A DNA stretch of 64,000 bases from contig JAZORH010000013.1 of NCBI GenBank assembly GCA_045656565.1, forward strand, positions 65,968-129,967, given 5' to 3'. The position numbers and the translations under genes were made by a program. The notes beneath the pieces were generated by a model. It did no database searches. It was given only the letters and a program-made list of their open reading frames with translations, and had not been told where the DNA came from. Numbering within the stretch: the first letter of the stretch is position 1; every line of letters starts with the position of its first letter. Below, piece after piece: positions 42,029-56,203 of this stretch. The stretch is from Candidatus Onthomorpha sp. (GTDB lineage Bacteria > Bacteroidota > Bacteroidia > Bacteroidales > P3).

Positions 42029-42111
42029 TGCTGTAAAATATAAAATGTTTCTGTTTTAACTATTAAATTGCCGTTTTATACTTCCAAAAACTACAAAGCG
42101 GCATTAAAATG

Positions 42112-42119
42112 CAAAGGTA
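42112..42119 (-). promoter_or_regulatory. -7 promoter element (TACCTTTG) of nifJ
   Basis: The reverse complement of caaaggta, 84 nt upstream of the ATG. Confidence 0.45.
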
Positions 42120-42297
42120 GTAAAAAAAACAAATACCTCAAAAAAATATTTTTATTAAATATGCATTTTCTACACTACCTTTTGCTCAAGAAAGATACAA
42201 GGGTTTACTATGTTATCTGTCTGATTCCTTAAATTCTTTCTTTTTTTGCGATTCTTAATATTTAGAAAGAGCGTAATTCAAATCAAGAATCAACAAA

Positions 42298-42334
42298 ACG
42301 AAACGCCGTTTCAGTAAATTGAAACGGCGTTTCG
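42298..42334 (-). terminator. Perfect 16-bp hairpin terminator
   Basis: acgaaacgccgtttca-gtaaat-tgaaacggcgtttcgt, followed on the minus strand by T-rich sequence. The stem sequence is related to the 21-nt unit family (GAAACGGCG). Confidence 0.7.
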
Positions 42335-42350
42335 TCATCTTAATTCTTCG

Positions 42351-42713
42351 TTATTTTTGGGGGAATAGTAAAATAAAGTATGTCCCATTATCTTCATACA
42401 CTTCTTTAATGATGAATTCGTCTTTTACTTTGTTAATTAGCTCTGATAACAAATCCATACTGTATGCTCTTTTTACGCAATAGCCTTCAGGAAATTCAAT
42501 TCTTGGTGTTCTCCATTGCACTTTCTTTATTATCATTTGAACTACCTTGCCATCAACTAAGACATCTACCGTTTTATAGTCTTCCGGGTTGGACAATTCT
42601 ACCCCTTGCTCAATATATAACACACCTTCGGGTATTTCTTCTTTTGAATACTCTTGTGCAAAAGCAAATGTTGTCAGAAACAATGCTGATGCGAATAAAA
42701 TTAGTCTTTTCAT
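42351..42713 (-). CDS. Small secreted protein of unknown function
   Basis: The signal peptide MKRLILFASALFLTTFAFAQ begins at an internal Met. The 31-codon upstream extension of the ORF looks non-coding (poly-A/T). Confidence 0.5.
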   Translation of the reverse strand: MKRLILFASALFLTTFAFAQEYSKEEIPEGVLYIEQGVELSNPEDYKTVDVLVDGKVVQMIIKKVQWRTPRIEFPEGYCVKRAYSMDLLSELINKVKDEFIIKEVYEDNGTYFILLFPQK

Positions 42714-42850
42714 ACTTGTTCGTTTTTTTTGTTGTAAACAATAAGACTGCAAATGTAAAAAAAAAGAAAGAAACTCCAATTTTTCAAGAAAAAAAAAAGC
42801 CGACAAGCAAATGGCTTATCGGCTTTCGTATTTATTGTTTTAATTTCTTC

Positions 42851-46688: not shown

Positions 46689-47201
46689 TTAATACTGAAG
46701 ATCGCAATCGAAAGACTTTATCAAAGTATCGATAGCATTTGTCTTCTTTTTGAAATATGCATACGTATCTTCAGGTGTATAGATTTTAACTGCTTTTTCT
46801 TTTTGTTTGCATCTAACTTTCAAAAAGTAGTTATCCATACCCGTCTTCTCTTTTACAAACGATTTAATCTTTTGTTTATTATTTTCTAATTCAAATTCGG
46901 AGATACTGTTATTGACTTCCAAAACGATGAATTCATCATTCAACTTAATACATTCTGCAGTCTTTATCGAGAAAGAAAGATTCGGATTCTCCGTTTCGCA
47001 TTCCTCGCTTAATTGTTTTAGAGCATCGCAAAACGCTTTGAAATCTTCAACTTTTTTTTCTTCAACAAGTTCGACATGTTTCTTCTCTAAAACCTTAACC
47101 TCTTCAACAGAGTCATTTATGGCAAAAGGAGATACGATTTTAATATTTGTATTGATCTTTCTAGTAGCCGGTGTCGCTACATTCAAATCGTCATTTTTTT
47201 T
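46689..47201 (-). CDS. dnaX: dnaX downstream segment: tau-specific C-terminal region in the -1 frame relative to 47183..48424
   Basis: This frame is open from the AAA codon at 47201-47199, immediately after an in-frame TAA at 47204-47202, down to the stop at 46689. There is no credible independent promoter or start. See the slippery-site feature. Confidence 0.65.
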   Translation of the reverse strand, partial: KKNDDLNVATPATRKINTNIKIVSPFAINDSVEEVKVLEKKHVELVEEKKVEDFKAFCDALKQLSEECETENPNLSFSIKTAECIKLNDEFIVLEVNNSISEFELENNKQKIKSFVKEKTGMDNYFLKVRCKQKEKAVKIYTPEDTYAYFKKKTNAIDTLIKSFDCDLQY

Positions 47202-48424
47202 TTAGTGTCGTCTTCTTTTAGAATCGAGTTTTGAGTAATTGGAGATGTTGCTTGCATTTGTTGAAGCGGACCTTGATTCAACTGGCGTGGTTGTTGCGTT
47301 TGCTGTGGAGGGTGCTGATTTGGTTGGAGTTTATTCATAATATACGCCATCTTCATCAAGCCTAGCTCTATGCACAAACGCTTATTGTAACTCTCTCTAT
47401 ACTCCAACGCACAAGTGTTTGCAAATTCCAAGGCACGCAAGATAAACAATTGAGGAGCGCTCTGAGCTTGCAAGTTATACCTTTGAGCAACCGTCTCACT
47501 AACATCTAACAACGATATAGAGGTAGGGTTTTTGCATACAAGTAAATTACGAAAATGAGAAGCCAATCCACTTATAAAATGACTACCTTCAAAACCTTTC
47601 TTAAGTACTTGGTCGAATAGCAGAAGGGAATTAGGAACATCGCTCGCCAAAAGCAAATCTGTCAATTTGAAATAGTAGTCATAATCCAATATATTCAAAT
47701 TGTCAATTATGTTTTTGTACGAAAGATTAGCATTTGTGAAAGAAACCAATTGGTCAAACATACTTAAAGCATCACGCAATCCCCCATCTGCCTTTTGAGC
47801 TATGATTCTAAGAGCCTCTTTCTCATATGCGACACTCTCAGTCTTTGCAATATACTCCAAATGGTTAGCAATATCTTCGTTATTTATGCGATGGAAGTCA
47901 AAAATCTGACACCTAGACAAGATTGTCGGCATAATCTTATGCTTTTCTGTCGTTGCAAGAATGAATTTTGCGTATGCAGGCGGCTCTTCCAAAGTTTTCA
48001 AAAACGCATTGAAAGCCGCAGTGGAAAGCATATGCACTTCGTCTATGATATAAACCTTATAGCGTCCGTTTTGAGGAGGAATTTTCACTTGCTCTATAAG
48101 AGAGCGTATATCCTCTACTGAATTGTTCGATGCAGCGTCTAGTTCCACTATATTGAAAGACGCATTTGAATCGAAGCTGCGACAACTCTCACATTCGTTA
48201 CAAGCTTCCGTTTGTTCGTTTATGGAAGTGCAGTTGATAGTCTTTGCCAATATTCTCGCACAAGTAGTCTTCCCAACACCTCTTGGACCGCAAAACAAAA
48301 ATGCTTGTGCAAGCTGATTGCTCCTTAAGGCGTTTTGCAAAGTCGAGGTGATGTGTCCTTGCCCTACAACCGAACGAAAATCACTCGGACGATACTTTCT
48401 GGCTGATACAACATAGTTTTCCAT
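47183..48424 (-). CDS. dnaX: DNA polymerase III subunit gamma/tau, zero-frame (gamma-like) product
   Basis: The AAA+ clamp-loader motifs are GPRGVGKTT (Walker A), IIDEVHMLS (Walker B), a zinc module CNECESC, and SRC (ILSRCQ). It is 413 aa and ends 9 nt after the A10 run. Confidence 0.9.
   Translation of the reverse strand: MENYVVSARKYRPSDFRSVVGQGHITSTLQNALRSNQLAQAFLFCGPRGVGKTTCARILAKTINCTSINEQTEACNECESCRSFDSNASFNIVELDAASNNSVEDIRSLIEQVKIPPQNGRYKVYIIDEVHMLSTAAFNAFLKTLEEPPAYAKFILATTEKHKIMPTILSRCQIFDFHRINNEDIANHLEYIAKTESVAYEKEALRIIAQKADGGLRDALSMFDQLVSFTNANLSYKNIIDNLNILDYDYYFKLTDLLLASDVPNSLLLFDQVLKKGFEGSHFISGLASHFRNLLVCKNPTSISLLDVSETVAQRYNLQAQSAPQLFILRALEFANTCALEYRESYNKRLCIELGLMKMAYIMNKLQPNQHPPQQTQQPRQLNQGPLQQMQATSPITQNSILKEDDTKKKMTI
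47194..47203 (-). other. dnaX: A10 homopolymer: candidate transcriptional-slippage / -1 ribosomal frameshift site joining the two dnaX reading frames
   Basis: The plus strand shows T10 at 47194-47203. The minus strand reads ACT AAA AAA AAA ATG ACG ATT TGA. Confidence 0.6.
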
Positions 48425-56132: not shown

Positions 56133-56203
56133 AGGTCTCTTCCAGATTCGAACTGGAGTAAACGGTTTTGCAGACCGGTGCCTAGCCACTCGGCCAAGAG
56201 ACC
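56133..56203 (-). tRNA. tRNA-Cys (GCA)
   Basis: The minus strand reads GGTCTCTTGGCCGAGTGGCTAGGCACCGGTCTGCAAAACCGTTTACTCCAGTTCGAATCTGGAAGAGACCT. It has a 7-bp acceptor stem, anticodon loop CUGCAAA, T-arm TCCAG-TTCGAAT-CTGGA and the U73 discriminator typical of tRNA-Cys. No CCA is encoded. Confidence 0.9.

Follow-up and report, generated by a model that had tools for sequence, protein, structure and literature searches.

A dnaX gene split at a conserved A10 tract in an uncultured Bacteroidales genome, with RNA polymerase slippage as the probable route to tau

The 64,000-nucleotide stretch analyzed here (the window; positions 65,968–129,967 of contig JAZORH010000013.1, Candidatus Onthomorpha sp.) carries on its minus strand a dnaX gene for the DNA polymerase III subunits gamma and tau, the two parts of which lie in different reading frames and meet at a run of ten A's. 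This is probably a functional dnaX with a programmed recoding site, at which RNA polymerase slippage on the T10 template yields tau. The zero frame encodes gamma alone, and the supply of tau therefore depends on slippage under this proposal; an essential replisome subunit would then be dependent on non-templated transcription. The evidence comprises the geometry of the junction, the homology of the second frame to the tau C-terminus, the recurrence of the junction in independent assemblies, and a survey of dnaX genes across Bacteroidota.

The dnaX junction and the tau C-terminal domain

The features at the junction are as follows (ORF, open reading frame; aa, amino acids).
47183..48424, minus strand: dnaX zero-frame ORF, 413 aa, gamma-like, with ATG at 48424 and ending KKKMTI* (ORF list and Pfam)
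47194-47203, minus strand: A10 homopolymer (T10 on the plus strand), the proposed recoding site; exact length 10 by sequence reading
47183..47185, minus strand: zero-frame TGA, three codons past the A10; ends gamma on unslipped A10 and on A13 mRNA
47191..47193, minus strand: third-frame (+1) TGA that abuts the A10; ends a 410-aa gamma variant on A9/A12 mRNA
47202..47204, minus strand: -1-frame TAA, formed by the T before the run and two A's (three-frame translation ...RRRH*KKNDDL...)
46689..47195, minus strand: tau-specific C-terminal segment in the -1 frame, NDDLNVATP...CDLQY, 168 codons plus TAA (translation, homology to fused DnaX)

The minus strand reads GAC GAC ACT AAA AAA AAA ATG ACG ATT TGA at the junction. 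The 413-aa product matches the Pfam families DNA_pol3_delta2 (2.6e-45), DNAX_ATPase_lid (5.7e-16) and DNA_pol3_gamma3 (residues 246–370), and consists of clamp-loader domains I–III followed by a Q/P-rich linker. Because the DNA_pol3_gamma3 match covers residues 246–370, the A10 is placed in this linker, about 40 residues past domain III. An earlier description of this DNA made from the letters alone, referred to below as the sequence-only reading, had proposed a complete zero-frame clamp-loader product ending at 47183, and both the ORF list and the Pfam domains agree with it.

The -1 frame is open from AAT (47195–47193) to the stop at 46691–46689, i.e., for 168 codons, and past the upstream TAA it reads KK, NDD and a 165-aa ORF with a TTG start (TTG at 47186). 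Three-frame translation reproduces the closing TAA at 47204–47202 and the 3 + 165 open codons down to 46689 that had been described before. Since this TAA shuts the tau frame upstream, the two frames are joinable only within the A10, as the sequence-only reading had it. Joining the frames after KKK gives a computed tau of 410 + 168 = 578 aa, which is the size of about 578 aa previously put forward for one extra A, and the immediate TGA claimed for one A fewer is read directly in ACT AAA AAA AAA TGA.

The likeness of the -1-frame product to the C-terminus of full-length Bacteroidota DnaX, noted in the sequence-only reading, is now substantiated by alignment. In BLASTP searches all 168 residues of the peptide align with residues 397–564 of the fused homologue P0022 (37% identity, E 2e-41), the alignment beginning immediately past KKK, and the peptide also matches the last 148 residues of P0089 (NCBI: DNA polymerase III subunit gamma/tau; E 4e-13). 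An alignment of 28 sequences contains invariant columns in the tau C-terminal domain. In the sister species introduced below, the first 69 codons of the -1 frame past the run are without ATG, GTG or TTG and include the conserved block NIKIVSPFAIN; in the first 40 aligned columns, the codons of the window and the sister species are identical at 7 positions, differ synonymously at 12 and non-synonymously at 9. Judged by this comparison, protein-coding constraint acts on the -1 segment ahead of any codon at which translation could start, a pattern that a separately translated ORF cannot explain; the segment is, it appears, read by continuation. A promoter and terminator scan revealed no internal terminator and no convincing promoter for the downstream ORF.

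An AlphaFold2 (AF2) model of the C-terminal domain has a mean predicted local distance difference test score (pLDDT) of 72.5, with values of 80–90 in the alpha/beta core. A Foldseek search of the Protein Data Bank (PDB) with this model gave no match at E<=1e-3; the top matches, which are non-significant, were DnaA domain I (4tps_D, E 7.6e-3) and DciA, a resemblance of KH-like class only, and E. coli tau domain V (2AYA) was found at rank 24 (E 0.18, template-modeling (TM) score 0.26–0.33). Pfam gave no match on the C-terminal piece from the window, and the library used reported PF28557 on neither P0022 nor P0054. Precomputed matches to PF28557 (DUF8439) are present on most fused homologues as well as on stand-alone C-terminal ORFs (P0144 and P0157 among the relevant clusters). 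This distribution suggests that PF28557 is the C-terminal domain of tau in Bacteroidota; the window's copy is too divergent to match. In public annotation the tau C-terminus of the split gene is a separate 165-aa hypothetical protein (46689–47186; P0001). When the species representatives were searched exhaustively with the C-terminal piece, only 18 proteins came back, most of them short; given how far the domain has diverged, they say little about the fused-to-split ratio.

The A10 tract in independent assemblies, a sister species and Bacteroidota at large

With two A10/T10 runs observed in the 36% G+C window against 7.0 ± 3.5 expected from dinucleotide shuffles, the A10 run is in itself unremarkable; its position and conservation exceed chance. 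It is the sole homopolymer of >=8 nucleotides (nt) in the window to lie where two open frames of one strand meet, and the assembly is therefore not generally broken at homopolymers. Public copies of the 165-aa downstream ORF exist at 98% identity (cluster P0001; 18 contigs read). An identical ACT-A10-TGACG junction is present in 10/10 other contigs of the window's species, whose source samples and assemblers differ (ENA megahit, Logan, and the NCBI metagenome-assembled genome (MAG) GCA_036309295.1, 'Bacteroidales bacterium'), and all ten share the same gene order, i.e., DUF4139, dnaX of 413 aa, the 165-aa ORF, a Na+/H+ exchanger and a mutase. Homologues of the zero-frame product at 99% identity are likewise 413 aa long, and the protein database holds no fused DnaX form more than 90% identical to that of the window. 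Since ten further independent assemblies and a diverged sister species have A10, the split at the run is a genuine genomic state and no assembly error.

The sister species (L011–L013, L096) is about 80% identical to the window in the N-terminal part of the protein and about 69% in the C-terminal domain. Its junction reads GCT-A10-TGATTC (GCT-A10-TGATTCTTTAG), and the flanking linker DNA is clearly different from that of the window; the -1 offset, a zero-frame stop after three codons and a TGA abutting the A10 are shared. The sequence-only reading had suggested aligning dnaX from related genomes with respect to run and offset, and both recur here, while the run recurs in most of the Bacteroidota species surveyed below. 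The 412-aa split form of the sister species was indexed in 57 blocks of the collection, and 24 contigs were read. Fused proteins of 564–585 aa are encoded by three singleton contigs of the sister group and by one further species; their junction, ...AEAKKKNDSL..., is exactly that predicted for the joined frames, and both fused forms whose DNA was read (L094 and L095) have A11. At 97.7% identity over 4.2 kb, L094 carries A11 at 2719–2729 (fused, 585 aa) where L096 carries A10 at 2719–2728 (split, 412 aa), and the split and fused states are therefore one A apart. The A11 of L094 may be a real, if rare, allele, or else a homopolymer error in this singleton contig. It is rather unlikely that the L096/L094 difference is a real polymorphism, such that a single A toggles the default subunit within populations as well as between lineages. 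If it were, tract length and the slippage rate of RNA polymerase would together determine the gamma:tau ratio, and so the make-up of the replisome, and replication stoichiometry would be coupled to transcription conditions in a large part of Bacteroidota.

The survey covered 80 GTDB species-representative Bacteroidota loci, retrieved with the gamma part as query. An A9–A13 run lies at the boundary of domain III and linker in 66/80 species (about 80%), at codons ~350–390 and in one case at codon 454, and is exactly A10 in 57 of these 66; a run of >=9 A's is absent in the remaining 14/80. The zero frame is that of tau in 50/80 species, which have fused genes (43 with A10, 5 with A9 and 2 with A11). 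In another 14/80 the gene is split and the tau C-terminus lies in the -1 frame (A10 in 12, A12 in one, A13 in one), and 2/80 are split with tau in the +1 frame (L033, Paludibacter, and L050, Bacteroidaceae, both with A10 at codon 365), making 16/80 species, or about 20%, split at the run. Split genes occur in Flavobacteriales, Bacteroidales, Cytophagales and Prolixibacteraceae alike; so scattered a distribution implies that polarity has flipped repeatedly. The survey shows that the A10 tract is the conserved element across Bacteroidota, and that the polarity of the zero frame varies between lineages. Standard annotation misses tau in this organism, as it does in roughly one fifth of the Bacteroidota species sampled; public records enter the C-terminal domain of split genes as a 'hypothetical protein'.

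The stops around the run follow a consistent pattern. The zero frame closes within 0–5 codons in 18/18 split genes examined, and the third frame closes within <=4 codons in 15/18 of them, compared with a background of 0.29 (P ~2e-6). Furthermore, both non-tau frames close within <=4 codons in 28/50 fused genes, compared with about 8% expected (P ~5e-18). Quick stops in the non-tau frames would be expected if messages entered all three frames, and a pure -1 ribosomal shift does not call for them.

The split geometry has three variants. Longer runs with a -1 offset occur in the split dnaX genes of L077 (A12) and L081 (A13). In L033 and L050, tau would need one A fewer or two more. In L021 (2501–3652 and downstream), where the zero-frame ORF is 383 aa long and the tau C-terminus lies in the +1 frame, the junction falls in a GC-rich linker and has no homopolymer; an assembly error could account for this, as could a pseudogene or another kind of recoding site.

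Transcriptional slippage and competing explanations

In the proposed mechanism, RNA polymerase would slip on the T10 template and give rise to mRNAs with A-runs of varied length, in which one added A (or two dropped) would lead into the tau frame. The frame logic for each run length is read directly from the sequence. Messages with A10 or A13 would give the 413-aa gamma ending KKKMTI; those with A9 or A12 would run into the adjoining TGA, for a gamma of about 410–411 aa; and those with A11, A8 or A14 would bring the 168 codons into frame and give a tau of about 578 aa (...DDTKKKNDDLNV...).

The strongest competitor is programmed -1 ribosomal frameshifting on A_AAA_AAA as the main tau route, similar to E. 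coli with reversed polarity. The heptamer is present in phase (zero-frame AAA AAA AAA), and a -1 shift on it would give the same ...KKKNDD... product; in addition, PMC5009743 treats reversed-polarity dnaX candidates as ribosomal, e.g., that of Chlorobium phaeobacteroides, where the run is no longer than A7 and the stimulators resemble those of E. coli. Several observations nevertheless speak for slippage and against this route. The run is kept at 10 nt in 57/66 species, beyond the 7 nt of a ribosomal heptamer. Both shift directions occur among the orthologues, L033 and L050 needing the opposite shift, and this is the criterion of Antonov et al. for transcriptional realignment. All three frames are managed, the third being closed quickly as well, although a -1 ribosomal shift never enters it. 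Neither significant or shared RNA structure nor a consistent Shine–Dalgarno-like (SD-like) element is found near the run. When 80 nt on each side of the run were folded for three species, no structure was significant or conserved (z +0.3 to -1.5). In the 80 nt downstream, where an E. coli-type stimulatory stem-loop would lie 5–8 nt past the heptamer, z is -0.86 for the window, -1.49 for L011 and -1.35 for L095, and the folds differ. No SD-like stimulator is present about 10 nt before the run in the window (upstream letters GAAGACGACACT); a GAGG occurs upstream only in the sister species, where it lies 3 nt from the run, the wrong spacing for a stimulator. A_AAA_AAA is, moreover, reportedly far less shifty than A_AAA_AAG in E. 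coli (PMC5009743), and slippage has experimental precedents in Thermus dnaX and C. rodentium tssM1, described below. We therefore consider ribosomal frameshifting improbable as the main route.

Several considerations weigh against transcriptional slippage as we propose it. We infer the mechanism from comparative anatomy, and ribosomal -1 slippage on the in-phase A_AAA_AAA could contribute and would lead to the same KKKN junction. The 80 surveyed loci are the best-scoring of at least 600 matches and no random sample, and the binomial P values treat species as independent, ignoring shared ancestry. Finally, a second, intact dnaX may lie beyond the 64 kb viewed.

Slipped-strand variation at the DNA level is another conceivable source of tau, in that mixed A10 and A11 alleles would coexist and the A11 variants would encode it. 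The assembly of both A10 and A11 forms of one species (L096 and L094) is in line with this; however, tau is essential in every cell, so that a minority allele is no adequate source, the consensus is A10 in every sample of the window's species, and many genomes of isolates and species representatives show a fixed A10. This explanation is very improbable.

It is also very improbable that the split is a sequencing or assembly artefact of a true A11 and an ordinary single ORF. Long homopolymers are error-prone, and fused A11 versions do exist in the sister species (L094) and in a related species (L095). Against this, A10 is found in 11/11 assemblies of the window's species from different samples and assemblers, and in the sister species on dozens of contigs as opposed to three singleton fused forms. 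The same assemblers give an in-frame A10 in 43 fused genes, and a systematic one-base undercall cannot explain both. Furthermore, no other gene of the window is broken at a homopolymer, and the same split is present in complete isolate genomes (PMC3711429).

The C-terminal domain of tau works tethered to the clamp loader in the Pol III holoenzyme. A truly split or decaying gene, with a gamma-like DnaX and a separately started C-terminal protein (TTG 47186) or a pseudogenised tau, fits the TTG three codons into the -1 frame of the window and the 165-aa protein that gene callers annotate as its own, but is extremely improbable given that the role of tau needs this tethering, that the sister species conserves the protein with many synonymous differences across 69 start-free codons past the run, and that a conserved A10, offset and flanking stops are no hallmark of decay.

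If transcriptional slippage is indeed the route to tau, such bacteria are a natural system in which to measure RNA polymerase slippage in vivo and to ask why a mixture of gamma and tau is maintained.

Known dnaX systems, a TAG-interrupted clade and other features

Two-ORF dnaX genes with a poly-A junction were described by Antonov et al. 2013 (NAR 41:6514, PMC3711429), who listed 17 genes from 12 genera, offset by -1 at the DNA level and in nine cases carrying A10, and proposed transcriptional realignment. The list includes the Bacteroidetes Flavobacterium johnsoniae, F. psychrophilum, Cytophaga hutchinsonii and Capnocytophaga ochracea as well as Chlorobium spp. and Coraliomargarita, and inverted-polarity dnaX is mentioned again in a major review (PMC5009743). 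No experimental test of two-ORF dnaX genes was found in the literature, PMC3711429 included. The inverted polarity has been known since 2013, and the gene in the window is another case of the Antonov type. The sequence-only reading was right that the polarity is inverted relative to E. coli and Thermus, but it cited only those two as precedents, and inverted polarity at an A10 had already been published in PMC3711429.

As in the Antonov-type genes, an A10 lies at the gamma/tau boundary of the window's dnaX, with a -1 offset, a zero-frame stop right past the run and a tau that needs recoding. Domains I–III followed by a stop, the A10 junction, the tau C-terminus in the -1 frame, and conservation of site and offset are all present; every defining feature that is testable in silico being found, we class the gene with this type. 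It also shares the T-A(n)-TGA context with Capnocytophaga dnaX. The published genes belong to other lineages, whereas the window derives from an uncultured gut/rumen Bacteroidales, and its gamma has a longer linker and is therefore longer, 413 aa as compared with about 360–375 aa in most split relatives. The present analysis adds a Bacteroidales case found in many independent assemblies, direct A10/A11 sister forms, phylum-wide frequencies of run and split, and three-frame stop statistics. That the A10 tract is conserved phylum-wide, and not the polarity, emerges from the survey; the split genes listed in 2013 did not by themselves reveal it.

For Thermus thermophilus dnaX (Larsen et al. 2000), the passages of PMC1088944 that deal with this gene give about 50% slippage at an A9. 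They describe an A-run at the gamma/tau boundary with near stops in the other frames, as in the window, and RNA polymerase slippage at that site, as proposed here; unlike in the window, the A9 is in frame, tau is made unslipped and gamma arises by slippage. This Thermus-like, fused polarity is that of 50/80 Bacteroidota relatives. E. coli dnaX shares with the window the gene, the boundary, the two products and a slippery sequence of lysine codons, but there a ribosomal -1 shift makes gamma, at A_AAA_AAG with an upstream SD-like element and a stem-loop. The run in the window is 10 nt long and ends in A, whereas the E. coli site ends in G.

A longer, required product that arises by slippage at a homopolymer before a premature stop, as proposed here, has been shown experimentally for tssM1 (PMC4256274) and Shigella mxiE (PMC1088944). 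In Citrobacter rodentium tssM1, which has A11, the required long form is made via about 20% slippage, and in Yersinia pseudotuberculosis tssM3, with an in-frame A9, slippage makes the short form (PMC4256274). Like dnaX, the tssM orthologues thus have opposite polarities; unlike dnaX, tssM1, tssM3 and mxiE encode unrelated proteins and are no essential housekeeping genes.

A different interruption at the same boundary was observed in a clade of gut/rumen Bacteroidales, where three of the surveyed loci that lack an A-run carry an in-frame TAG (L030:2788–2790, L044:3599–3601 and L051:3602–3604). Past the TAG the zero frame runs on for 189–254 codons and ends in a normal tau C-terminus. Scanning metagenomes for a 20-nt pattern taken from two of the TAG sites (L051 is unmatched by it) yielded 13 more contigs, L097–L109, with about 10 distinct variants, for a total of 16 contigs of the TAG type. 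The 3' context of the TAG is ATT GCA AGG TCG CCN CAG GCG GAG CAC GG, also given as ATTGCAAGGTCGCCNCAGGCGGAGCACGG, and third codon positions past the TAG are nearly invariant while the surrounding linkers diverge. In the protein database the C-terminal domain of this clade occurs solely in stand-alone 'hypothetical proteins' of 165–241 aa and never fused, and PF28557/DUF8439 is present on 17/19 of its C-terminal clusters. Alignment folding near the TAG gave an invariant 5-bp hairpin without covariation and a second helix that is unreliable, as it lies in unalignable linker. No paper on tau production via stop-codon readthrough was found in the literature. The TAG clade is a candidate for programmed UAG readthrough making tau and may represent a further, undescribed route to gamma plus tau.

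Two other features of the window were recorded.
42789-42798: the other A10/T10 run, which forms the T-tail of the terminator hairpin that follows the methylmalonyl-CoA mutase gene
56133-56203, minus strand: single tRNA gene, the only Rfam match at the gathering threshold in the 64-kb window

An 820-nt gap separates two minus-strand genes at 42029–42850. Besides the A10/T10 run, it contains a small signal-peptide-like ORF of about 120 aa (MKRLILFASALFLTTFAFAQ...) and, near 42300–42340, a second hairpin terminator.

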